Positions 13,356 through 40,752 of a stretch of DNA of 64,000 bases are shown here, one piece after another (positions within the stretch are counted from its first letter, which is position 1; each line of letters begins with the position of its first letter). The notes below the pieces were generated by a model. It did not search any database, was not told the origin of the DNA, and saw nothing but the letters and a program-made list of their open reading frames with translations. This DNA is from a virus, in IMG/VR virus record IMGVR_UViG_3300027763_000039, positions 1 to 64,000 of that record; one strand, given 5' to 3'. Both the position numbers and the translations under genes were made by a program.

Positions 13356-14200
13356 TTAATAAATTATACAATTGGATTTATCCAACAAAAACTACCGATA
13401 TCAAACAGACAACAGATTCTGATGTTACCATAGATGGAAAAGTTGAGAATAGTCCTTTATTTAATTTGATTTTTCATTTTCATTGCGTTAGACACGAAAA
13501 GGTTTGTTATTCAATTGCTAAAATAGAACAGCATTTAGAGATATTCAATGGACATAGAATTTTTACCGTATCATCTCCAGACAATAAGTTTTATGATAAT
13601 CCTATTTATAAATTATTGATAGAAAAATTTGCCAAAAAAAATGTTCATATTATTCCTGTTACAAATGATAGTGTCGTTAGAGAAACTCTACATTTTTTTG
13701 ATAAAGCTTGTCCACTACTACATCATCTACTAAAAATCAATAAACAAAATAATAGTTACACATTTTATGGTCATAGTAAAGGATGTACTCACGCAGAAAA
13801 AACTTATTCTATTACTTGTTGGGTAAATACATTATTTAAATATAATCTAGATTTGTTCTACAATAAAATTAAACCAGAATTATTAACCAATCAGTATAAA
13901 TTTGTTGGTTGTTTGAAAAGAACTGGTAGTTCTGGTTTTGGAGCATCATTTCATTATTGTGGTACATTTTTTTGGTTTAATTCCAATATTTTAGATAATC
14001 CTACTTATAGAACACATGAACACAAACTAGGACTAGAAATGTGGCCGGGATACATAGCTAATGATGCTGAGTGTTTATCAGTATTTGATCTTGATAATAT
14101 TGAACCTTATCGTTATGATTATTGGTATAATTTAGTTTATGGTAGAATAATAGATAGGCCAATAACATTTTCTTGTAGTGCAATAGGAGACCAGCTATGA
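13352..14200 (+). CDS. Hypothetical protein with HSKG motif, paralogue of 11924..12679
   Basis: YTFYGHSKG, FHYCGTFFWF, EMWPGY. Confidence 0.65.
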   Translation: MINKLYNWIYPTKTTDIKQTTDSDVTIDGKVENSPLFNLIFHFHCVRHEKVCYSIAKIEQHLEIFNGHRIFTVSSPDNKFYDNPIYKLLIEKFAKKNVHIIPVTNDSVVRETLHFFDKACPLLHHLLKINKQNNSYTFYGHSKGCTHAEKTYSITCWVNTLFKYNLDLFYNKIKPELLTNQYKFVGCLKRTGSSGFGASFHYCGTFFWFNSNILDNPTYRTHEHKLGLEMWPGYIANDAECLSVFDLDNIEPYRYDYWYNLVYGRIIDRPITFSCSAIGDQL

Positions 14201-15015
14201 TTTCAGCAATTGTTCCATCTTTTAAAAATCCTAAGTGTTTAGAAATTTGTATCAAATCTTTTCTTGATACTCAAACAACAGGCTCCGAACTCATATGTAT
14301 AATAGATGGTTTTGCTGATATGTACGAAGAAATGGCTACTAAATATATAGATAATCCTTTGGTTAAATTTGCTGTTAATGAAAAAAATAAAGGTATGCCG
14401 TTCTCTATTAATTTAGGAGCATATTACTCTATTAATCCATGGTTATTAATCCTAAATGACGATAATGTATTTCCTAAAAACTGGGATACTATTTTACTCA
14501 ATCAAATGAATAAAAATCTGGTCATATCTCCCAATCAAATAGAGAGAAATGAAAGCATATTTAATTTTGTCAAATACGATTTTGGCACAATAGATAACTT
14601 TAAATATGAAGATTTCTTAGAAAAAGAACCCTCCTTAAGAGAAGGTGATCATCTTACTAATGATGGGGAAATATTCCCTTTTTGTATCAGTAAAAAACTC
14701 TTCATGGCAGTTGGTGGTTTTGATCTTGTATATCCTTCTCCATTTGTTTGTGATTGGGATTTTTTCTTAAAATTGGAATTATTGGGTATACAATTTTATA
14801 GAACAAGACAATTGAATTTTTATCATTTTGGAAGTATGGCTACCAAAAAGTCTTCTAGTGCAGAAGATGCTGATTATTTTAGGAATAGTGAAAATATTGC
14901 ATCAGAAGTATTTTCACAAAAATGGGGATTTGAGCCAACTATACAAAGACCATCTAATTCTCACAAACCAGATACTACAGAAATTATTAGAGGAATTAAT
15001 TACTATGAAGAATAA
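14197..15015 (+). CDS. Glycosyltransferase family 2
   Basis: ISAIVPSF, IIDG, LNDDN, VGGFD, DWDF, FYHFG. Confidence 0.88.
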   Translation: MISAIVPSFKNPKCLEICIKSFLDTQTTGSELICIIDGFADMYEEMATKYIDNPLVKFAVNEKNKGMPFSINLGAYYSINPWLLILNDDNVFPKNWDTILLNQMNKNLVISPNQIERNESIFNFVKYDFGTIDNFKYEDFLEKEPSLREGDHLTNDGEIFPFCISKKLFMAVGGFDLVYPSPFVCDWDFFLKLELLGIQFYRTRQLNFYHFGSMATKKSSSAEDADYFRNSENIASEVFSQKWGFEPTIQRPSNSHKPDTTEIIRGINYYEE

Positions 15016-16006
15016 AATTCTTATTACCGGCAATGCAGGACTACTTGGTTCTAATTTAGCCGATTATATTATACAAAATTATCCAAAATATAGTGTCTAT
15101 GGAGTAGATGATCTTAGTGGTGGCTACAAAGAGAATATTAATCCTAGTATCCATTTTTATCAAATGAATATTTTAGACCCAGAATTTGATAATGTTTTTA
15201 GTGCTATTAAACCCGATTATGTCTTTCATCTAGCAGCTTATGCAGCAGAGGGGCTCAGTCCATTTATTAGACAATTTAATTACAACAATAATTTACTATC
15301 AACTGCTCGCGTTATCAATAACTGTATCAAACATGATGTAACAAGATTAGTTTTTACATCTAGTATGGCAGTCTATGGTGATAATCCCACACCTTTTGAT
15401 GAATCTATGAGACAAAAGCCAATAGATCCTTATGGAATAGCAAAGTATGCTTGTGAAATGGATATACAAGTGGCTGGTGAGCAACACGGATTAGACTGGT
15501 GCATTATTAGGCCACATAATGTTTATGGCAGAAAACAAAACATCTGGGACAAATATCGTAATGTTCTTGGAATATGGATGTATCAACACCTAGAAGGTCG
15601 GCCTATTACTATTTTTGGTGACGGTGAGCAGAAGAGGGCCTTTAGCTACATTAACGACAGCGTGGGACCATTGTTTAAAGCAGCTATAGAACCACAAGCT
15701 TCCAAGCAGATTATAAATCTAGGAGGCATTCATGAGTGTTCCATTAACGAAGCCGCAGATGCTTTATTGTCTGTAGTTGGCGGACAAGCGGACAAGATTT
15801 ATTTGGAAGGTAGACACGAAGTTAAATATGCCTACCCAACTTATCAAAAATCTGTTGACATTTTGGGATTTGAGCATATAACATCTCTATCTGATGGCTT
15901 AAGCGACATGTGGACATGGGCAAAAACTCAACCACGACGCTCAAGATTTATCTGGAATCATTACGAAATAGATAAAGGAATATATTCATTTTGGAAAACC
16001 GCATAA
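15005..16006 (+). CDS. NAD-dependent epimerase/dehydratase
   Basis: ILITGNAGLLG Rossmann motif, FHLAA, FTSS, YGIAK (YxxxK). Start re-set to the ATG at 15005 after GAGG. Confidence 0.92.
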   Translation: MKNKILITGNAGLLGSNLADYIIQNYPKYSVYGVDDLSGGYKENINPSIHFYQMNILDPEFDNVFSAIKPDYVFHLAAYAAEGLSPFIRQFNYNNNLLSTARVINNCIKHDVTRLVFTSSMAVYGDNPTPFDESMRQKPIDPYGIAKYACEMDIQVAGEQHGLDWCIIRPHNVYGRKQNIWDKYRNVLGIWMYQHLEGRPITIFGDGEQKRAFSYINDSVGPLFKAAIEPQASKQIINLGGIHECSINEAADALLSVVGGQADKIYLEGRHEVKYAYPTYQKSVDILGFEHITSLSDGLSDMWTWAKTQPRRSRFIWNHYEIDKGIYSFWKTA

Positions 16007-24363: not shown

Positions 24364-24748
24364 TATTAATCTGGATCCTCAACAAATACAGCAAATGATT
24401 ATGATGCTCCAGGCTATGCTGCCCAAGCAAGATGGTCAGGAATCATCTGGCCAAAGTGACACAAAGAGCAAAAAGAAATCTCCTCGTTCAAACAATAAAA
24501 ATAAGCCAACAATAACAAAGGCTTCTACTAATAAGTTTGATTCTATGATGGAAAAAAGAATGCATATGGAAGACATAGAAATAGATAAAAAATTAATAGT
24601 CCAGCCTCCGGTACCAAGAGCCAGAGCATTCAATCTAGTTAATGTAGTATGTAGAGTTTGTGGAAAAAGAGAAAGCGTGAATCCAGTATTAATTACTGAT
24701 TCTATTGATCGATATAAATGTAACAAATGTTCTGGAGCAGCAGGCTAA
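24353..24748 (+). CDS. Hypothetical protein with C-terminal zinc ribbon
   Basis: CRVC...CNKC. Confidence 0.7.
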   Translation: MDNNINLDPQQIQQMIMMLQAMLPKQDGQESSGQSDTKSKKKSPRSNNKNKPTITKASTNKFDSMMEKRMHMEDIEIDKKLIVQPPVPRARAFNLVNVVCRVCGKRESVNPVLITDSIDRYKCNKCSGAAG

Positions 24749-24749
24749 T

Positions 24750-26207
24750 ATGATTTTATCTGATGTTGCCGCAGAAAGAGCGGTGTTGTCTGGGATTTGT
24801 AACTATGGTGAGGATGCTTACCTAGACGTTGCAGACATTGTTCAAGACTCCTCGTTTACTATTGACAGTAATTCTATTATTTTCAAATGTCTAAAAGTGG
24901 TTTGCGAAAGAGAACAGAAGCCGAATATCGACGTAGCTAGTATCTTTTCTGTGGCCGAAGAACTTGGGTACGCTCATATTCTATCTAAAAAAGAAGAGGT
25001 CCAACATTTAAGAGCTATTATAGACTTTCCTGTAGCTTTAGACAATGTACGCAAGTTTGCTGCAAAAATTCGCAAATTAGAAATTGCTAGACTTTTGCGT
25101 AAGCAACTGGAACTGGCTCAAGAAAAAATTCTAGACGTTAATGGTACAGAACCAATTGGATCTATTCTTGGTATCGCAGAAGAGACGATATTCAATTTCA
25201 CATCATTGCTTAATGATAGCGATAATAATCCTGTGGTTATAGGCAAAGATCTAGATGACTATATTCGTAATCTTGAGTTAAATAAAACTGATCAGATTGG
25301 TATTCCTACAGGTTTTCCAGCATATGATCAAGCTATTGGTGGAGGATTAAGAAAGGGAACCGTTAATGTAATAGCTGCTCGCCCTAAAACTGGTAAAACT
25401 CTACTCTCTGATAATATTGGTCGTAACGTAGCTAAGTTAAATATTCCCGTATTGAATATGGATACGGAAATGAATAAGGAAGACCATATTAACAGAATCT
25501 TAGCTATGATGACCGAAATTGAGATTAATGCAATTGAAACAGGAAAGTTTGCAGAATCACCAGATAAAAAGACTAAGCTATTACAAGCTGTAGAAGAAAT
25601 TAAAAAGACTCCATTTTTTCACAAAAGCATAGCCGGTAAACCATTTGAAGATCAATTAGCTATTATGAGAAGATGGGTATTAAAAGAGGTTGGTCTTAAT
25701 GATGACGGGACAGCTAAGGATTGTGTGATATTCTATGACTATCTAAAACTAATGGATAGTGCTGGAATGAGCCAAGACTTAAAAGAATATCAAGTATTAG
25801 GCTTTATGATGACCTCATTACACAACTTTGCTGTTAGATATAAGGTTCCCATTGTGGCCTTTATCCAATTAAACAGAGACGGTATTACAAAGGAAAGTAC
25901 AGATACAGCAAGTGGTTCAGATCGAATCATTTGGTTATGTAGTAATTTTAGTATCTTTAAGAGAAAAACTCCTGAAGAGATTGCTGAGGACGGCCCAGAT
26001 AATGGTAATCGTAAACTAGTACCTTTGATTAGTAGACATGGTGGTGGATTAGATGATAACGATTATATTAATTGTCATATGAAGGGCTGGTGTGCGAAGA
26101 TTACTGAAGGTAGGACAAGACTAGAAGTTCTTAATAATAGAGGTAGTTCATCCGATGGATTTGTTGTTGAAGCGCAAAATGATAATGAAGAAATCCCATT
26201 CGAATGA
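24750..26207 (+). CDS. dnaB: DnaB-like replicative helicase
   Basis: AERAVLS, TGFPAYD, ARPKTGKT, DTEM, YDYLKLM, QLNR. Confidence 0.93.
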   Translation: MILSDVAAERAVLSGICNYGEDAYLDVADIVQDSSFTIDSNSIIFKCLKVVCEREQKPNIDVASIFSVAEELGYAHILSKKEEVQHLRAIIDFPVALDNVRKFAAKIRKLEIARLLRKQLELAQEKILDVNGTEPIGSILGIAEETIFNFTSLLNDSDNNPVVIGKDLDDYIRNLELNKTDQIGIPTGFPAYDQAIGGGLRKGTVNVIAARPKTGKTLLSDNIGRNVAKLNIPVLNMDTEMNKEDHINRILAMMTEIEINAIETGKFAESPDKKTKLLQAVEEIKKTPFFHKSIAGKPFEDQLAIMRRWVLKEVGLNDDGTAKDCVIFYDYLKLMDSAGMSQDLKEYQVLGFMMTSLHNFAVRYKVPIVAFIQLNRDGITKESTDTASGSDRIIWLCSNFSIFKRKTPEEIAEDGPDNGNRKLVPLISRHGGGLDDNDYINCHMKGWCAKITEGRTRLEVLNNRGSSSDGFVVEAQNDNEEIPFE

Positions 26208-27336
26208 TCAAAATCAATTAAAGATCGTCTGTGATGAAGTATGTGATAGTATTGATACTTTGTTAGACTTTTTTAATATTGAGTATAGATCAAACAATAA
26301 AATGATATCTATGGCTTGTCCGATTCATGGCGGAGATAATATCTCTGCTATTAATTTATACCCAGAAGGAGACAGATATCGAGGAAATTGGAAGTGCAGA
26401 ACTCATGGGTGCGAGAAGATATTTAAAGCTTCTGTAATAGGTTTTATTAGAGGAGTATTATCACATCAAAAACATGGCTGGGAAAAAGATGGAGACAAAG
26501 CCTGTTCATTTAATGATGCTTTGGATTTTGCTCTAAAGTTCATCAAAAAAGATCTGAAAAATATTAAAGTTTCTAAGTCAGAAAAAGACAAGAGATTATT
26601 TACCAGCGCTATTAATTATATTGGAAATGGAACATCGGATACTCAGCCTGTTGTTTCTTTACCCAAAAGAGAACAGGTTAGACAATCTTTGGTAATGCCA
26701 GCAGAATATTATCTATCTAGAGGATACTCTTTAGAAGTATTAGATAAGTATGATATCGGATTTTGTAATAAGCCTAATAAAGAAATGTCGAATAGGGTTG
26801 TGGTACCTATTTACAATAATGATTATACACACATGATCGGTTGTTCTGGAAGAAGCGTATCTGAAAAATGCCCTAAATGCTCGTCGTACCATGCTTTATC
26901 AGAAAATTGTCCACCAGATGAAAAGAAATGGCTATGTTCAAAATGGAAACATAGTGCTAATTTTAAAAGTCAAAATTGTTTGTATAATTTTTGGTTTGCT
27001 CAAAAACACATTATTAAAAGTACAGTAGTTGTTATAGTAGAAAGTCCTGGCAATGTATGGAGATTAGAAGAAAACGGCATACATAATAGCGTAGCCATCT
27101 TTGGTTCATCGCTAAGTGATAGACAGAAAATCATGCTTGATTCTTCTGGAGCTATGACTATTGTTATATTAACAGATAATGACGACGCTGGTAAAAAAGC
27201 AGCCGAACAGATCAAAGACAAGTGCAAAAATACATACAGAATATTTGTTCCTCAAATCTCTAAAGGAGATATTGGAGAAATGACTCGGGATGAAATTAAT
27301 ACGGAAATTAAACCCTTCTTAGAAAGTATCATATGA
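26185..27336 (+). CDS. dnaG: DnaG-like DNA primase
   Basis: CPIH...C..C zinc finger, YYLSRG, RVVVPI, TOPRIM IVES and TDNDDAG; start uncertain (26179 or 26185). Confidence 0.88.
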   Translation: MKKSHSNDQNQLKIVCDEVCDSIDTLLDFFNIEYRSNNKMISMACPIHGGDNISAINLYPEGDRYRGNWKCRTHGCEKIFKASVIGFIRGVLSHQKHGWEKDGDKACSFNDALDFALKFIKKDLKNIKVSKSEKDKRLFTSAINYIGNGTSDTQPVVSLPKREQVRQSLVMPAEYYLSRGYSLEVLDKYDIGFCNKPNKEMSNRVVVPIYNNDYTHMIGCSGRSVSEKCPKCSSYHALSENCPPDEKKWLCSKWKHSANFKSQNCLYNFWFAQKHIIKSTVVVIVESPGNVWRLEENGIHNSVAIFGSSLSDRQKIMLDSSGAMTIVILTDNDDAGKKAAEQIKDKCKNTYRIFVPQISKGDIGEMTRDEINTEIKPFLESII

Positions 27337-27929: not shown

Positions 27930-28963
27930 TTACATATCTTAGAAGTAGTTCCTATGGAACACATTCTATGTGTCCTCAACAATATTTTTTTGAATATATT
28001 CTTGGTTTAAGATCTCCATCTAATAAAAAAGCAGACAAAGGAACTATTTGCCATAAGGCTTTAGAAATCTTGGCATTTATTAAACTCAATACCCAAAACA
28101 ATAATCCAATTTTTGAGGATGATGTGGTGGGAAAAGTAGATATTAATAATTATAGCATTAAAAAAATAACTGATCAAGTATACGAATATTATACTTCTCA
28201 GTTCACTCATCATGTTTGGGAACCAAAAGATCATAAAGATTGTCATGCATGGATTAATAAAGCTTTAGAATATAATAAGGGTATGTTTGATCCTAGGAAT
28301 AGACATATAGTTCAGCCAGAACAACGCTTTGATCTTGAGATTAAGAAACCTTGGTCATCATACCGATATGAAACCAAAGATGGAGTCCTTGAAGGAAACC
28401 TTGCTATTAAAGGAACTATTGATCTTATTACTAAGGTAAATGATAACACCCTAGAAGTCATCGATTGGAAAACAGGACGAAGACTAGATTGGGCCACAGG
28501 AGAAGAAAAAACTCTAGAGAAACTTCAAAACGATCCCCAATTAAGGATATATCATTATGCAATTCAACATATGTATCCAGAGATCGAACATGTAATGATA
28601 TCTATTAATTTCATCAATGATGGTGGGGCATTTACTATTTGTTTTGATAAAACAGATTTATACAAAACAGAAATCATGTTGAAACAAAAATTTGAGACTA
28701 TAAAGAATACTCAAAAACCTCAGTTAAATAAAAGCTGGAAATGTAGTAAGCTTTGCCACTTTGGAAAAAGCACATTTGCTAATAGCCCAATAGAGCCGCT
28801 AACAGAATACAGAGACGGTCAACTAACAGCCAAAAACCAATGCATGACCAAATGTGAGCAAGTTAAACATGACATAGACACTACCGGAATGAAAGCAGTC
28901 ATTGACAAGTATCAGGCTCCCGGTTATAGTATAGGTCACTACAAGGCACCCGGCACCGTATAA
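27923..28963 (+). CDS. Cas4/AddB-like PD-(D/E)xK exonuclease with putative Fe-S cysteines; probable ATT start
   Basis: SSS...CP N-terminal motif, GTICHKALE, GTIDLI, IDWKTG, QLRIY, C-terminal CSKLC/CMTKC. The frame extends upstream of ATG 27968 to ATT 27923, 7 nt after AGGAG. Confidence 0.82.
   Translation: MIITYLRSSSYGTHSMCPQQYFFEYILGLRSPSNKKADKGTICHKALEILAFIKLNTQNNNPIFEDDVVGKVDINNYSIKKITDQVYEYYTSQFTHHVWEPKDHKDCHAWINKALEYNKGMFDPRNRHIVQPEQRFDLEIKKPWSSYRYETKDGVLEGNLAIKGTIDLITKVNDNTLEVIDWKTGRRLDWATGEEKTLEKLQNDPQLRIYHYAIQHMYPEIEHVMISINFINDGGAFTICFDKTDLYKTEIMLKQKFETIKNTQKPQLNKSWKCSKLCHFGKSTFANSPIEPLTEYRDGQLTAKNQCMTKCEQVKHDIDTTGMKAVIDKYQAPGYSIGHYKAPGTV
28902..28930 (+). promoter_or_regulatory. Sigma70-type promoter for dnaE, inside the 3' end of the nuclease gene
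   Basis: TTGACA-17 nt-TATAGT. Confidence 0.65.
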
Positions 28964-28999
28964 CATTTTTGGTTATAACAACGAAATAAGGAGAAAATT

Positions 29000-29060
29000 A
29001 GATATGGACATGACTAGAGGGTATGTGCCTCTGCATGTCCATTCTTAGGTGGGCTATGTA
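29000..29060 (+). other. Structured RNA/recoding element: two alternative hairpins around a 10-nt coding gap (29046-29055)
   Basis: Hairpin A spans 29000-29045 (~18 bp, including perfect ATGGACATG/CATGTCCAT). Hairpin B spans 29032-29060 (~11 bp, loop TCTTAG). Confidence 0.7.
29004..29048 (+). CDS. dnaE: DnaE piece 1: 14-codon N-terminal segment MDMTRGYVPLHVHS*
   Basis: TAAGGAG SD at 28987-28993; encodes the first PHP strand with the HxH metal ligands; ends at TAG 29046-29048; not in the ORF track. Confidence 0.85.
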   Translation: MDMTRGYVPLHVHS

Positions 29061-30897
29061 CTCACTTTTGGATGGACTATCGCAGCCAAGAACTATTGCT
29101 GAACGATGTCAAGAAATCGGAGCAACTTCTTGTGCATTAACTGATCATGGTAATATTGCTGGAGCAGTTAAGTTTTATACGGAAATGAAAAAGAAGGGAA
29201 TTAAGCCTATCCTGGGATGTGAGGTTTATCTTTGTGATCAAGATCCTAAGATTAAAACAAAAGAAAACAAAGACTTAACCCACTTTGTGATTCTAGCTAA
29301 GAATTATGAGGGGTGGAAGAGTCTTATTAGAATTGTCTCCGAATCCAATCAGCCAGATCATTTTTATCATAAGCCAAGACTAGATATAAACACTCTTGCA
29401 CAATATTGCAATAATAATATTATTGGATTTTGTGGTCATGCTGGATCTTATTTAGCAGATAGGATTACTAATAATAATCAATTGATCGGTGATTGGAGAA
29501 ATGTTGGGATTGACCAAATTGGTAAACTAAAGGATGTTTTTGGTACAGAGAATTTCTTTCTAGAAGCACAATTAATGGATTCGGTCAATTCTCCTATTCA
29601 GACACTTTTGACTGGTGCTATGAGAGATTTGGCCAAAATTACTAATACCAAAATCATTTCTACGCCAGACGCTCATTATTGCCGCAAGGAGGACGCTGTA
29701 GATCAAAGGGTGCTTCTCTGTAATAATTTAAAAACAACCTTCCCAGAGATCAGCAGGAAGATCAGTAACGATGAGGAGGTGCCTCTTGGTTGCTTTTTTA
29801 CATCTGACAACTTCCATATCCTATCTCCAGAAGAAATGGGTCATTTTCATACAGAAGAAGAGATGGAAAATACCAAGATAGTAGATGAATTATGTGAAAA
29901 CTATAATATCTTAGATAAACCACATTTACCTCCATTTTCTTGTCCTGACGGAGCTAATCCAGATGAATACCTAAGGCAATTATGTCGTAATGGTTGGAGA
30001 GATAAAATTGCTAATAATATAGATAAAGATACCCAAGAAGATTATGTGAATCGAATAAAGTATGAATTAGAGGTTCTACAAGGGGCTGATCTTTCTAGTT
30101 ACTTTTTAATTGTACAAGATATTGTTAACTATGTCAGGAAAAACAACTGGCTTCCTGGGCCGGGAAGAGGAAGTGCGGCTGGTTGTCTAGTCTCTTACCT
30201 GATTGGTATTACTAGTATTGATCCTATTAAGTATGGTTTATTATTTGACAGATTTTATAATGCTGGACGAAATAGTAAAGACCATATCTCTATGCCTGAT
30301 ATTGACGTAGACGTACCTATTAATAAGAGAGAAAATGTAATCGAATATATTAAGCAGTGTTATGGGGCTGATAAGGTTTCTCAAATGATTACATTTAATA
30401 CTATTAAGGGTCGTGGTGCTATTAAGGATGTATTAAGAGTTTATGGTAATATATCATTTGATGAAATGAATAAGATCACTAAAAGTATTCCAGATGAAGC
30501 TAAAATTGCCGACGATCTTCAAGAAATGAAAGAAGAGACTGGGGAAGCATCTATTATTCGGTGGGCATTAGAAAATGAGCCAGATAAACTGAAAGAATGG
30601 TGCTATATAGATGAAAAAAATGAATTACAAGGACCGCTTGCCAAAAGATTTGAACAGGCTATTAGATTAGAAGGAACTAAGTCTAATCAGTCCAAACATG
30701 CGGCTGGTATTGCTATTAGTTCTAAACCATTAAATACATTGTGTCCTATGGTGTACGATTCAAAAAATGATCAGCTTATAGCTGGTATGGAAATGCAAGA
30801 TCTAGAAGCGTTAGGCATTATCAAATTTGATATTCTTGGCGTGGCAATGTTAGATAAAATTATGACTATCCAAGACATCTTATCAAAAGGAGATTAA
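29056..30897 (+). CDS. dnaE: DnaE piece 2: DNA polymerase III alpha, PHP + palm/thumb (613 aa)
   Basis: YSLLDG, LTDHGN, GIKPILGCE, DAHY, GPGRGSAAG, SMPDIDVD, HAAG, KFDILG. Confidence 0.93.
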   Translation: MYSLLDGLSQPRTIAERCQEIGATSCALTDHGNIAGAVKFYTEMKKKGIKPILGCEVYLCDQDPKIKTKENKDLTHFVILAKNYEGWKSLIRIVSESNQPDHFYHKPRLDINTLAQYCNNNIIGFCGHAGSYLADRITNNNQLIGDWRNVGIDQIGKLKDVFGTENFFLEAQLMDSVNSPIQTLLTGAMRDLAKITNTKIISTPDAHYCRKEDAVDQRVLLCNNLKTTFPEISRKISNDEEVPLGCFFTSDNFHILSPEEMGHFHTEEEMENTKIVDELCENYNILDKPHLPPFSCPDGANPDEYLRQLCRNGWRDKIANNIDKDTQEDYVNRIKYELEVLQGADLSSYFLIVQDIVNYVRKNNWLPGPGRGSAAGCLVSYLIGITSIDPIKYGLLFDRFYNAGRNSKDHISMPDIDVDVPINKRENVIEYIKQCYGADKVSQMITFNTIKGRGAIKDVLRVYGNISFDEMNKITKSIPDEAKIADDLQEMKEETGEASIIRWALENEPDKLKEWCYIDEKNELQGPLAKRFEQAIRLEGTKSNQSKHAAGIAISSKPLNTLCPMVYDSKNDQLIAGMEMQDLEALGIIKFDILGVAMLDKIMTIQDILSKGD

Positions 30898-30898
30898 T

Positions 30899-31096
30899 AT
30901 GGCAATGCAAAAGTTTATGGATATAGCAATCGGGACTGTTTTTAAGCATGAAGGTAATGAGTATCGAAAAATCCCAGAAGAAAGAATCAGTTGCTGTTCG
31001 GCCATTAATGCTCAAGGAGTACATAATGCCCAGCAAAGAATTCAAGTTTTGCCACTAGTAGAAGTCGAAGTCCTAGGAGATAACACTCAAGCATGA
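30899..31096 (+). CDS. Small hypothetical protein between the dnaE halves
   Basis: AAGGAG SD within the end of dnaE; ATGA overlap with the exonuclease gene. Confidence 0.65.
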   Translation: MAMQKFMDIAIGTVFKHEGNEYRKIPEERISCCSAINAQGVHNAQQRIQVLPLVEVEVLGDNTQA

Positions 31097-31794
31097 TCAA
31101 CTATAATAAAATTTGCGTTTTCGATTTTGAAACAGATGGTTCTGATCCTAAGTCTTGTAGTCCAGTACAAATTGCAGCCATAATTATTGATCCATTAAAA
31201 CTGGAAATTGTTCCCAATTCTGAATTCAACATCTTTTTTAAACCAGAGGTATTGGCAAATGATGAACAATATCAATATACTACAGACATTTTAGATTTTC
31301 ATGCCAAGGTAAGAGGTTCTTCTAAAGAAGCTATTCTAGAAGAATGGAAGAAGTACCCTGCTCAAGATCAGTCTTGGAAATTGTTTACAAACTATCTAAC
31401 AATGCATCATACCAGATCCAGCAAAAAGAGCCAGTTTAGTGCTCCTATTGCTGCTGGTTACAATATCAATAGATTTGACTTGCCAATTATTGATAGGTTG
31501 AGTCGTAAATATGGTAATACGAATAAGGAAGAAAGAAGCGATATTTTTTATCCAAGAGACGTATTAGATATTATGAACCTAGTCTTCTATTGGTTTGAAA
31601 ACAATGGAGATCTCAAAAATCTTTCCCTGGACACTCTTAGAGATTATCTGGGCATAAATAAAGAGGGTGCTCATGATGCTCTAAAAGATGTTAAAGATTG
31701 TGCAGAAATTCTGATTCGTTTTATGAGACTACATCGTAACCTAGGAAATAAGATTAAGTTTAAGGACTCATTTCAGTCACCATCACATGTCTAA
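31093..31794 (+). CDS. DEDDh 3'-5' exonuclease (DnaQ/epsilon-like)
   Basis: VFDFET, AGYNINRFD, AHDALKD. Confidence 0.92.
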   Translation: MINYNKICVFDFETDGSDPKSCSPVQIAAIIIDPLKLEIVPNSEFNIFFKPEVLANDEQYQYTTDILDFHAKVRGSSKEAILEEWKKYPAQDQSWKLFTNYLTMHHTRSSKKSQFSAPIAAGYNINRFDLPIIDRLSRKYGNTNKEERSDIFYPRDVLDIMNLVFYWFENNGDLKNLSLDTLRDYLGINKEGAHDALKDVKDCAEILIRFMRLHRNLGNKIKFKDSFQSPSHV

Positions 31795-33418
31795 AAAATT
31801 TCAATACAGTTGCGGATGTTCTTTTGACATTATATCTGAACATGACGATAAGGATAGAATGACTCTTAAATTTAATCCTAAAATAGAAGAGATTAGTTTA
31901 GAGTGTCAAAAAACTTGGGACCTAATTTCAGACGGAAATACTAAAGGGTGTTTCCAGTTGGAGTCTAGGCTTGGTAAGTCTATGGCTAAAAAACTAAAGC
32001 CAGAAAATATCGAACAGCTATCTGCCTTAATTAGTATTATGAGGCCGGGTTGTCTTGAAGCTTTTAGAGATGGCAAATCAGTTTCTAACCATTTTATAGA
32101 TAAAAAGAATGGCCAGGAATCTGTAGATTATTATCATCCCTCTTTAGAGCCTATTCTAAAGGGAACATATGGTGAAATGATTTACCAAGAACAGGCTATG
32201 GAAATTGCTAAAATCGTAGCTGGTTTTGATCTTCAAGAAGCAGACATGTTAAGAAAAGCTATTGGTAAGAAAAAACCAGAAGAGATGGCTAAGATTAAGA
32301 TTAAATTTTTAGAAGGCACAGAAAAAGTTGGTACAGTAGCTACTTCTCAAGCAGAAGAAATTTTCGGCTGGATTGAAAAGTCCCAGAGATATTCTTTTAA
32401 TAAATCCCACGCTGTTAGTTATGCTATTAATAGTTATTTATCAGCTTATACCAAGGCTCATTTTCCCAAAATATTTTTTGCTGCATATTTAAGATTTGCA
32501 AAAGATAAAATTGATCCTAAGGCAGAAATTAAAGAATTGGTACAAAACGCTAATGAAATGGATGTTCCTGTTTGTATACCAGATATTAGAAACTTAAATC
32601 AACTATTCATTCTTAAGAATAACAAGATTTACTTTGGACTAACAGACATCAAGGGTTTTGGACAGTCCGTTTTTGACAAATTAGTTAAACTCAAAGAAGA
32701 TAAGAAGCTAGATTTTGATACCATGAACTGGATAGAAATGCTGACTACGGTTTTGATCAATATCAACTCTACATCTGCTAAAGCATTAATCCAAAGTGGA
32801 GCAATGTCATATTTGGGTAAGAATAGAGTGGCTATGTTATTCGAATTTGGTTTAGTCTCAGAATTAACCAAGAAGGAATCAGACTTCATTATAGCTAATC
32901 TCTATAAATATAAATCAATAGGAGATGCTCTTCATGATCTATATCATAATGGAAAATCCAATAAGAATAGAAAAGCAATTATTCTAGATTTAATTAATAG
33001 CTATAATAAGCCTCCATATTCTTTAGAAGATAATCCAGATTGGATTGCTGATGCGGAAGATGCATTTTTAGGGTGTAGTATAACCTGTTCTAAAGTTGAT
33101 ATGTATGATATTACTATGACTAATACAACCTGTAAAGACTTTAAAAACACCACGCTTAAAGATAATATTCTCTTGTGTGGAGAAATTGAGAGTGTGGGTG
33201 TTACTAAAACTAAATCTGGCAAGACACCGGGTCAAGAAATGGCATTTGTTACTATGAGCGATGGCACAGGAGTAATAGATTCTGTTGTTTTCTTTCCAGA
33301 AGCCTATAAGGCTTATCGAAATATTTTATTTGATGGCAATGTGATCATAGTAAAAGGTAATAGAGCCAAGTCTGGCGATTCACTAATTGTAGAAAAGACG
33401 TATATTCCTAAAACTTGA
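31787..33418 (+). CDS. dnaE: DnaE piece 3: DNA polymerase III alpha C-terminal part (fingers, HhH, OB fold)
   Basis: GCFQLES, MRPG, YQEQAM, LRKAIGKKK, YSFNKSHA, PDI, GLTDIKGFG, MAFVTMSDGTG. Confidence 0.93.
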   Translation: MSKKFQYSCGCSFDIISEHDDKDRMTLKFNPKIEEISLECQKTWDLISDGNTKGCFQLESRLGKSMAKKLKPENIEQLSALISIMRPGCLEAFRDGKSVSNHFIDKKNGQESVDYYHPSLEPILKGTYGEMIYQEQAMEIAKIVAGFDLQEADMLRKAIGKKKPEEMAKIKIKFLEGTEKVGTVATSQAEEIFGWIEKSQRYSFNKSHAVSYAINSYLSAYTKAHFPKIFFAAYLRFAKDKIDPKAEIKELVQNANEMDVPVCIPDIRNLNQLFILKNNKIYFGLTDIKGFGQSVFDKLVKLKEDKKLDFDTMNWIEMLTTVLININSTSAKALIQSGAMSYLGKNRVAMLFEFGLVSELTKKESDFIIANLYKYKSIGDALHDLYHNGKSNKNRKAIILDLINSYNKPPYSLEDNPDWIADAEDAFLGCSITCSKVDMYDITMTNTTCKDFKNTTLKDNILLCGEIESVGVTKTKSGKTPGQEMAFVTMSDGTGVIDSVVFFPEAYKAYRNILFDGNVIIVKGNRAKSGDSLIVEKTYIPKT

Positions 33419-39512: not shown

Positions 39513-39980
39513 ATGGATATAGGTTTTTATTTATTGGATGTTGAGCCAAATAATGAAACTCAAAATAAAATTATCAAAGCTATAAATGATTTATGTAATA
39601 TTTATCCATATGCTAATATTGTGTTATTCAATAATCAATTCAATAATATAGATATTGGACATAAGTATTATATATTACATATTCAACAGGCTAAATATTT
39701 TGATGGTCTACTTTTTGTTTTTGATATTAAGAGCGCAATGCTAACACAGACTTTTCCTTCTCCCAAAAAACAAATTTTGTGCGTGTCGAATCCAGAGTGG
39801 AGTAAAAATGGATCCATTCCTCATGGATTTTGGCATAACATTTATATGAAAAATAATTTTGAACTCATTACCGATAATCAGCAAACCTATGATTTGTGTG
39901 AAATTTGCTGGAAAAAACCTCTTAGTTTGATTGAAGATATTAATAGTAAGGAGCTTCAAAATGTCATCTCCAAAATATAA
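39513..39980 (+). CDS. Hypothetical protein
   Basis: AAGGA SD; 155-aa alpha/beta pattern. Confidence 0.65.
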   Translation: MDIGFYLLDVEPNNETQNKIIKAINDLCNIYPYANIVLFNNQFNNIDIGHKYYILHIQQAKYFDGLLFVFDIKSAMLTQTFPSPKKQILCVSNPEWSKNGSIPHGFWHNIYMKNNFELITDNQQTYDLCEICWKKPLSLIEDINSKELQNVISKI

Positions 39981-40752
39981 AAAATTGACTGATGTAGATA
40001 AAAAAGCTGTTTTACAGCAATACTATGTTAAAGAAAAACTAAGCTTTCAAGATATTGCTGAACTATATGGAACATATGCTAATCAGATAAGAAGAGATGC
40101 TAAAAAATTTGAGATACCAATTAGAGATAAAAGTGAAGCTCAAAAAAATGCTCTTACGTCAGGTAAACATAAGCATCCAACCAAAGGAATAGCTCGTAGT
40201 GAAGAAACCAAAGAAAAAATTGGTTCTGGTGTTATGGGAGCATGGAACAATCTTAGCCCAGATGAACTACAAAAAAGACAAGACAAAAGTAGACAGAATT
40301 GGGAAAAGTTAAGCGAAGAAGAAAAGGGGAATATTGTAAAGGCCGCTAATACTGCCGCGAGACTAAGTAGTAAAACTGGTTCAAAATTAGAGAAATTCAT
40401 CCTAAAAAAGCTTCTAACAGATGGATACTCTGTGGAATTACACAAAGAGCAATTGTTATCAAATACCAAGTTGCAAATTGACCTGTTCTTGCCTACAATG
40501 AACATAGCGATAGAAGTTGATGGGCCATCTCATTTTTCTCCCATATGGGGAGAGGATGCTCTAAAAAAGAATCAGAGTTATGATGAGAAGAAGAATGGAC
40601 TGATTATAGGTAGAGGATTATCGTTGATTAGGATAAAGCAATGTAGAGATTTTTCTAATGCTAGAGCTAATTTAATTTACTCAAGACTATTAGATTGTTT
40701 ACAAAACAAAACATATAAGAATAATACTATAACAAACATAGGGGATGAATAA
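39961..40752 (+). CDS. DUF559/Vsr-like endonuclease with HTH and NUMOD3-like segments
   Basis: LSFQDIAELYG, RSEETKEKI, IDLFLP...AIEVDGPSH; AAGGAG SD before ATG 39961. Confidence 0.8.
   Translation: MSSPKYKKLTDVDKKAVLQQYYVKEKLSFQDIAELYGTYANQIRRDAKKFEIPIRDKSEAQKNALTSGKHKHPTKGIARSEETKEKIGSGVMGAWNNLSPDELQKRQDKSRQNWEKLSEEEKGNIVKAANTAARLSSKTGSKLEKFILKKLLTDGYSVELHKEQLLSNTKLQIDLFLPTMNIAIEVDGPSHFSPIWGEDALKKNQSYDEKKNGLIIGRGLSLIRIKQCRDFSNARANLIYSRLLDCLQNKTYKNNTITNIGDE

Follow-up and report, generated by a model that had tools for sequence, protein, structure and literature searches.

A candidate programmed translational bypass at the broken start of a phage dnaE gene

The dnaE gene of an uncultured phage begins with a short reading frame that ends in a stop codon, and the region around this break is probably the RNA apparatus of a programmed translational bypass, in which the ribosome hops over a coding gap. 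The break lies in a 64,000-nt stretch of DNA (positions 1 to 64,000 of IMG/VR virus record IMGVR_UViG_3300027763_000039; hereafter the window), which is part of a 108-kb IMG/VR phage contig. Conserved, co-varying RNA structures are strictly linked to the gap. The leader exists in two mutually exclusive predicted states, in which a hairpin that buries the start codon competes with a helix formed further downstream. The region has no match in Rfam, and a search for cultured relatives returned nothing closer than about 34% protein identity in DnaE. No tRNA genes were found in the window or in the whole 108-kb contig.

The interrupted coding sequence and its variants

The reading frames and signals of the locus are listed here, with the names of the codons following the proposed hop.

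28985..29003, + strand: spacer upstream of the leader, containing the Shine-Dalgarno sequence
28988-93, + strand: Shine-Dalgarno AAGGAG, a good match, upstream of ATG 29004
29004..29045, + strand: ORF1, 14 codons (MDMTRGYVPLHVHS), encoding the first strand and H-x-H motif of the PHP domain
29043..29045, + strand: putative take-off codon TCT (Ser), the last of ORF1
29046..29055, + strand: 10-nt coding gap TAGGTGGGCT, with the stop TAG at 29046-48 and the presumed landing codon GCT at 29053-55
29056..30897, + strand: ORF2, the N-terminal DnaE piece, encoding the rest of PHP and the Pol III alpha NTPase/palm
31787-33418: C-terminal part of dnaE

ORF1 ends in H-V-H-S and ORF2 begins with M-Y-S-L-L-D-G, the two-ORF arrangement of programmed bypassing. 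ORF2 opens at ATG 29056 (MYSLLDGLSQ...) in the +1 frame relative to ORF1, and its 613 codons are intact. This downstream frame is conserved among relatives, and no second dnaE start was seen. Deleting the 10 nt at 29046-55 restores the canonical H-V-H-S-M-Y-S-L-L-D-G of unbroken relatives, in which the frame runs continuously through ...Y-x-P-L-H-x-H-S-x-Y-S-L-L-D-G. The PHP profile match starts from position 2 in unbroken relatives and from position 8 in ORF2 of the window, with ORF1 supplying positions 2-7. Because the unbroken relatives are uninterrupted and the PHP profile is split between the two ORFs, TAGGTGGGCT interrupts a single coding sequence. The P-L-H-V-H-S of ORF1 is kept among relatives while its codons vary synonymously; since it also supplies PHP positions 2-7, ORF1 is required as protein.

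The surrounding genes have features of their own. DnaE is encoded by two genes (29056-33418), one for PHP and palm and the other for fingers, HhH and OB, with a 65-codon ORF and an RNase T/DEDD exonuclease gene between the halves. DnaE matches in relatives likewise stop near residue 613, and this split seems conserved. Directly upstream of the leader, a PD-(D/E)XK nuclease gene (27968-28963) ends in ...YKAPGTV. The nuclease stop overlaps the dnaE start (ATGA) in unbroken relatives, and a spacer of 30-150 nt is found in broken relatives. Elsewhere in the window, same-strand adjacent ORFs with TTG starts overlap by 50-190 nt (14197-16006, 24705-27336 and 39513-40752); these may be ordinary ORF predictions extended too far, or they may mark additional recoding sites.

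A protein-based scan of IMG/VR gave 80 loci, among which nine lineages are broken at exactly the same point and the rest are unbroken. A pattern scan, which demanded the outer stem of hairpin A (described below) and a TAA or TAG stop, enlarged the broken set to 56 contigs with 36 distinct sequences. The window's exact 10-nt insert recurs in independent contigs from different samples and is therefore not an assembly error. A second, looser pattern scan yielded mostly noise, together with loci outside the first pattern (L141, L163/L213 and L170). L163 and L213 carry an MGVEQR leader, and L170 uses a TGA stop. L141 has an in-frame 9-nt gap with the presumed landing codon TTT, and its H-V-H codons contain GTT for GTC, which gives a G-U pair in both of the helices in which these codons take part.

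Gap lengths, counted from the stop through the codon preceding the resume codon, are 6, 8, 9, 10 and 11 nt among the 36 broken variants, and all three frames occur. Every gap sits between the invariant H-V-H-S and x-Y-S-L-L-D-G, and close pairs of broken genes differ by one base (GGGTCT versus GGGCT; GAATCT versus GATCT). Hopping alone is indifferent to the remainder of the gap length modulo 3; neither frameshifting nor read-through can serve all three classes. The take-off codon is TCT or TCC in 36/36 relatives and is immediately followed by the stop (TAA or TAG), the order seen in gene 60-type bypassing and, as TCT-TAG, in the window. The codon before the resume codon is TCN in 22/36, ACT in 7/36 and GCY in 7/36 by our tally, with a middle C in all 36; the window's TCT and GCT match at two of three positions. 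One relative with a 6-nt gap (L061) reads TCT TAA TCT CAT, the classical stop-hop arrangement. The resume codon is ATG in nine of the 36 relatives and CAT or CAC in the other 27.

RNA structures of the leader

Three elements make up the predicted leader structure.

29004..29042, + strand: hairpin A, with outer stem 29004-12/29034-42, inner stem 29014/29016-20 with 29028-33, and loop 29021-27
29047..29067, + strand: hairpin D, with 5' arm AGGUGGG (29047-53) and 3' arm CUCACUU (29061-67)
29037..29077, + strand: helix C, pairing GUCCAUUC (29037-44) with GGAUGGAC (29070-77) and enclosing hairpin D

The outer stem of hairpin A pairs ATGGACATG (29004-12) with CATGTCCAT (29034-42), and the inner stem pairs AGAGG (29016-20) with CCUCU (29028-32). 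The AUG start codon forms the first 3 nt of the stem and is hence buried. This hairpin was part of the original prediction, all of whose quoted bases are in place. The prediction had also extended the hairpin over the take-off codon by pairing AGA 29000-02 with TCT 29043-45. The stems are found in the window as described, but this extension is confined to the window's clade, and its central pair occurs in only 7/36 relatives. Hairpin A is both the minimum-energy and the centroid fold of 28990-29070 (-27.7 kcal/mol, versus -17.9 +/- 3.1 for shuffles; z -3.15, 3/200 shuffles as good). The native sequence of 28985-29091 (-32.3) also folds lower than most of 2000 protein-preserving recodings (-23.7 +/- 3.6; z -2.4, 35/2000 as low), the kind of comparison proposed with the original prediction. 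These single-sequence statistics are moderate. The z value against recodings stays modest since much of the complementarity is already imposed by the M-D-M and H-V-H residues.

Comparison among relatives strongly supports hairpin A as a real and universal element of the broken genes. Its 9-bp outer stem is paired in 100% of the 36 distinct broken relatives, an invariance that is unbiased only in the protein-similarity set, where the same stem is seen without the pattern requirement. Within this stem, pair 13-39 is G-C in 18 sequences, A-U in 17 and G-U in one, and another pair switches once. The hairpin is absent from 40 unbroken relatives. RNAalifold on a MAFFT alignment recovers the outer stem only; such a plain alignment under-counts hairpin D and the inner stem of A, as the pairing register shifts by one base between variants. 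The shift was handled by partner-swap permutations and by covariance-model realignment, the latter with a stricter cut-off, as the looser one took four opposite-strand hits of the palindromic hairpin A. For the inner stem of A, duplex energy is -141 with its own partners versus -105 +/- 8 with swapped ones, and for hairpin D it is -162 versus -118 +/- 7; in both cases, 0/5000 permutations matched.

In the structure-aware realignment, 86.4% of cells pair, versus 35-47% with slid partners, and none of 500 shuffles matches this value. Nine pairs have changed on both sides, four of them among the seven pairs of hairpin D. The sequences are related and the realignment is biased by its model, so that these covariation numbers are not probabilities; the slid and swapped controls preserve relatedness and are far lower. 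Predicted folding of the 96-nt region separates the two classes of gene as well, with a median of -28.1 kcal/mol in 37 broken and -12.9 in 40 unbroken genes, non-overlapping ranges and equal GC content.

Hairpin D, which is absent from the original prediction, occurs in both predicted folds of the window. Its 5' arm starts at the second base of the stop codon and continues through gap bases to 29053, and its 3' arm lies within the codons for Y-S-L-L. G29053, the first base of the landing codon, closes the stem; the loop contains that codon's other two bases, followed by the resume codon and part of the Tyr codon. Its predicted pair probability is 0.91-0.99 in contexts of up to 300 nt and 0.04 in a 316-nt context. 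Among relatives, the hairpin is 87% paired and four of its seven pairs show compensatory changes; in its position at the stop codon it resembles the A-site stem-loop of gene 60. Its core appears as GUG:CAC, GAG:CUC, GCG:CGC and ACG:CGU, and the many G-U pairs show that it acts as RNA on this (mRNA) strand. The Shine-Dalgarno-like GGUGG of the gap was considered as a conserved feature in its own right and rejected: the gap's GGTG is replaced by AGAGA, AGCGA or AACGA in relatives, and the 3' arm of D is altered to match.

Helix C and hairpin A are mutually exclusive, as each needs 29037-42. With 164 nt of context, the fold of lowest energy has a long hairpin, helix C around D, in place of A. The hexamer AUGGAC occurs twice, at the gene start and in the D-G-L codons, and both copies complement GUCCAU. 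The 8-bp core of helix C is nearly invariant in broken genes, and covariation cannot test a core that hardly varies. Its downstream arm is, however, fixed at synonymous sites in broken genes only: GATGGAC is found in 34/37 broken and 3/40 unbroken genes (Fisher 6e-15). Codon entropy is lowered at the codons for S-L-L-D-G, which supply arms of D and C, and nowhere else; the three codons that follow vary as much as they do in unbroken genes. This restriction argues against recent common descent or co-conversion. Co-conversion during homing was specifically rejected as the cause of the GATGGAC invariance, as codons nearer the gap vary and codons beyond it vary normally.

Forced folds of the window give -32.1 kcal/mol for A with D and -30.4 for C with D. 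Across relatives, the difference of C minus A has a median of +1.85 kcal/mol and ranges from -1.2 to +4.0 in 35/36, although total energies span 10. When the 5' arm of D is kept from pairing, C trails A by 6.65, which indicates that D makes C competitive. Longer folding contexts shift the balance between A and C, and L061, with its 6-nt gap, lacks C and D and keeps A. On these models, a two-state leader is predicted to exist as A versus C, two exclusive helices of comparable stability that are both conserved.

The original prediction had also envisaged a bistable leader, with a different competitor of A, hairpin B (29032..29060, + strand). Two states are borne out, but the alternative to A is helix C on hairpin D. 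Constrained folding and pair counts lead us to reject hairpin B: it can be drawn, but when forced it reaches only -22.5 kcal/mol, 9.6 kcal/mol short of the fold with A, and its pair probabilities are 0.000 in five sequence contexts. Across relatives, 62% of its cells pair and compensatory changes are absent, so that the covariation analysis suggested with the prediction speaks for both stems of A and not for B. The central pairs of B exist only in the nine sequences with an ATG resume codon. The insert, proposed as the source of an arm of B, instead supplies the 5' arm of D. The companion argument, that the insert is no random error, holds, as selected RNA structure is tied to it.

Crossing the gap and alternative explanations

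The gap is most readily explained as being crossed by hopping, with hairpin A as the presumed driver. Ribosomes would initiate at AUG 29004 and translate ORF1 until UCU 29043-45 reaches the P site with UAG in the A site. Termination would not follow; the ribosome would slide 10 nt with its peptidyl-tRNA(Ser) retained, settle on GCU 29053-55 and take up translation again at AUG 29056. The product would carry the normal H-V-H-S-M-Y-S-L-L-D-G, with the junction ...GYVPLHVHS-MYSLLDGLSQPR.

Three RNA elements would serve this mechanism: hairpin A joins codons one to three to those for H-V-H, hairpin D joins the stop and gap to those for Y-S-L-L, and helix C joins the V-H-S codons to the D-G-L codons. 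Free mRNA would have two near-equal states, A plus D with the start buried, and C stacked on D with the start open and the 5' arm of A free. Because A buries the start codon, C on D would be the form that admits ribosomes. A ribosome loading on this form would melt C and D while translating the 14 codons. At take-off it would cover 29031-29056, leaving the 5' arm of A free. As the 3' arm emerges from the exit channel, it would zip onto the 5' arm, pull the mRNA across the gap and block back-sliding. The predicted folding gain on the exit side, from take-off to landing, has a median of -12.5 kcal/mol (-11.9 in the window, with 12 nt assumed to be covered). The original prediction that A refolds behind the ribosome and pushes it over the gap is compatible with this geometry and with what has been reported for the 5' stem-loop of T4 gene 60 (bioRxiv 10.1101/2024.12.09.627546), and the driver role remains a model. 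More tentatively, the leader may be a ribosome-triggered RNA spring in which C on D holds the start open and the snapping shut of A alone drives an efficient hop of 6-11 nt, without a long nascent-peptide signal. Under that reading it would be the smallest natural programmed bypass device, and dozens of natural variants already amount to a compensatory-mutation series.

Several features count against a hop driven by A. In the window, the landing codon GCU is not a Ser codon, and re-pairing is available at only two of three positions; the GCY and ACT codons noted above in seven relatives each, and the apparent landing of L141 on TTT, likewise depart from a Ser-like landing site. Should about 12 nt still lie within the exit channel, A could form only partly after a 10-nt hop, and for hops of 6-8 nt the predicted exit-side gain shrinks to values of -3.5 to -6 kcal/mol. 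At take-off the ribosome already holds the 5' arm of D, and the innermost pair and loop of D share bases with the landing codon. ORF1 has only 13-14 residues, and its conserved part is also the PHP motif, which makes selection on the peptide inseparable from selection on the protein. The hop model is thus weakest in three respects: the window lands on a non-Ser codon, the nascent chain is short, and A forms only in part after short hops. Moreover, hairpin A, which buries the start codon, may mainly regulate initiation.

An explanation built mainly on initiation is nevertheless unlikely. Here the structures would mainly control initiation or mRNA fate, with A hiding and C opening the start, as a throttle or timing device for DnaE and perhaps a leftover of an endonuclease cassette, and A would play no active part in crossing the gap. 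The position of AUG in the first 3 nt of the A stem, the near-equal energies of A and C in 35/36 relatives and the endonuclease ORF that ends inside the leader of some relatives all agree with such control, and stop-hopping over 9 nt can happen at a low level unstimulated (bioRxiv 10.1101/2024.12.09.627546). Yet A, C and D are confined to genes with the gap, being absent from all 40 unbroken ones, D spans the very stop and gap to be crossed, and an essential polymerase would need efficient crossing. It is quite improbable that the ribosome terminates and that the same or a new one re-initiates at AUG 29056, with AGGUGG as Shine-Dalgarno sequence, to give a DnaE without its first strand and H-x-H motif. 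The AGGTGG that lies 3 nt before ATG 29056 in the window, and the ATG at this position in 9/36 relatives, would suit re-initiation, a reading that takes in the idea, from the original prediction, that a choice between A and B selects the start codon; such a choice is not supported. However, the other 27 relatives have CAT or CAC there, most of them without an in-frame ATG, GTG or TTG before the L-L codons, and the nearest unbroken relatives also have the ATG, as HCHSMYS. Moreover, the GGTG is exchanged for the bases given above with the 3' arm of D changed to match, ORF1 is retained as the missing PHP segment, and hairpin B is energetically negligible and not conserved.

A mixture of recoding events is very improbable. 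Genes of the window's 10-nt type would shift by +1 at UCU-UAG-G, with HVHS-RWA-MYSLLDG as the product, those with 8 or 11 nt would shift by -1 or +2, and those with 6 or 9 nt would rely on stop read-through. An A-site stop beside structured mRNA is a classic +1 setting, and the window's gap length fits a +1 shift, but three mechanisms would be needed among close relatives that are one base apart. A slippery sequence is absent, UCU re-pairs badly on CUU, and two or three residues would be added inside a metal-binding motif whose spacing is otherwise invariant. That the locus is a pseudogene or an assembly error, with hairpins arising by chance from palindromic codons, is barely credible. The single-sequence statistics (z -2.4 to -3.2) leave some room for chance, but the insert is identical in several independent samples, 36 distinct variants carry compensatory changes, and the 613-codon downstream frame is intact and conserved, with no second dnaE start seen. 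A bypass by hopping is thus the explanation that we favor.

Mobile-cassette context and known bypass systems

In four relatives (L032, L039, L086 and L104), an HNH/endonuclease VII-like ORF abuts the leader (L032:2245-2958, L039:2244-2957, L086:795-1520 and L104:1316-2050). The ORF is about 240 codons long and encodes an N-terminal helix-turn-helix. It is flanked by the PD-(D/E)XK nuclease gene upstream and the broken dnaE downstream, and it matches the PHROG endonuclease, HNH and endonuclease VII families (1e-22 to 1e-14). Its stop codon is inside the dnaE leader (ATGGACATGA). Remnants of the gene extend over 246 nt in L117, 154 nt in L103 and the last 19 nt in the window, where all 19 nt of 28985-29003 agree with the 3' end of the L032 ORF (100% identity). 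The broken state is scattered over the DnaE tree, and supported branches force at least 10 changes. This sequence pattern is that expected of a homing-endonuclease cassette invading, decaying and leaving a scar. In a further relative, the ORF upstream of the broken dnaE (L135:2459-3325) shows weak LAGLIDADG-like similarity (E 0.001, which does not reach the Pfam cut-off) and could be a further mobile element, located in the adjoining nuclease gene.

The literature on bypassing that covers gene 60, its topoisomerase homologues, Streptomyces terminase and yeast mitochondria contains no dnaE bypass that we could find. New here are helix C with its synonymous-site selection, the energy balance between A and C, the dependence of C on D and the rejection of hairpin B. 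If the hop is real, the locus would represent a second, apparently independent bypass family, located in an essential replicase gene, with very short gaps, a 14-codon first ORF and compact RNA. It would offer a small, tractable system for studying how a ribosome is moved without decoding by the folding of mRNA at its exit and entrance, and natural variation already marks which base pairs matter. The family could also reveal how homing-endonuclease cassettes render their insertion scars harmless. In practice, gene callers will mis-annotate such dnaE genes as truncated or internally started.

The prfB gene (RF2) undergoes a +1 shift on a slippery CUU with an upstream Shine-Dalgarno sequence. As in prfB, an A-site stop in dnaE would slow decoding and let the P-site tRNA re-pair forward, and some dnaE variants contain GGUGG. 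Unlike in prfB, the displacement is 6-11 nt, and the Shine-Dalgarno-like bases are replaceable if the D pairing is kept. Candidate bypass sites have been described for Streptomyces phage terminase genes (PMC10732093), and the mitochondria of the yeast Magnusiomyces carry multiple bypass elements. These share with dnaE that natural coding gaps were inferred from comparative sequence, whereas the genes, hosts, gap lengths and signals differ. In unprogrammed E. coli stop-hopping, which is low-level and unstimulated, 9 nt specify one amino acid (cited in bioRxiv 10.1101/2024.12.09.627546). The dnaE leaders resemble it in a short hop over a stop to a matching codon, exactly so in the TCT TAA TCT of L061. 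They are unlike it in belonging to an essential gene, in their conserved, co-varying structures and in gaps of up to 11 nt.

The closest parallel is the bypass in T4 gene 60, which is associated with the mobA HNH homing-endonuclease cassette and has homologues in other myophage topoisomerase genes (bioRxiv 10.1101/2022.08.31.505936; 10.1101/2024.12.09.627546; PMC5462505). A 2022 preprint describing dozens of these homologues presents T4 bypass as a previously isolated phenomenon (bioRxiv 10.1101/2022.08.31.505936). For gene 60, mRNA pairing at the ribosome exit has been proposed as the driver, and the A-site stem-loop contains the stop (bioRxiv 10.1101/2024.12.09.627546). By its architecture, the dnaE family looks like a miniature, independent counterpart of this system. 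Both have two ORFs for one protein and a stop directly after the take-off codon and within the 5' arm of a stem-loop (D in dnaE). The landing codon of dnaE resembles the take-off codon to a varying degree, in the window at two of three positions. Both systems also have a 5' stem-loop, for which the conserved, co-varying hairpin A would be the equivalent although its role as driver is here only presumed, and a free-standing HNH endonuclease gene nearby with a patchy, mobile distribution. The host gene, however, is dnaE and not a topoisomerase subunit, the gap is 6-11 nt instead of 50 nt, and the take-off tRNA is Ser instead of Gly. With an ORF1 of only 13-14 codons, a long nascent-peptide signal is not possible. 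The 5' hairpin of dnaE abuts the take-off codon and contains the start codon. Its stop-containing hairpin uses the skipped segment as 5' arm and a coding 3' arm beyond the landing site, and a third element, helix C, gives the dnaE leader two states.
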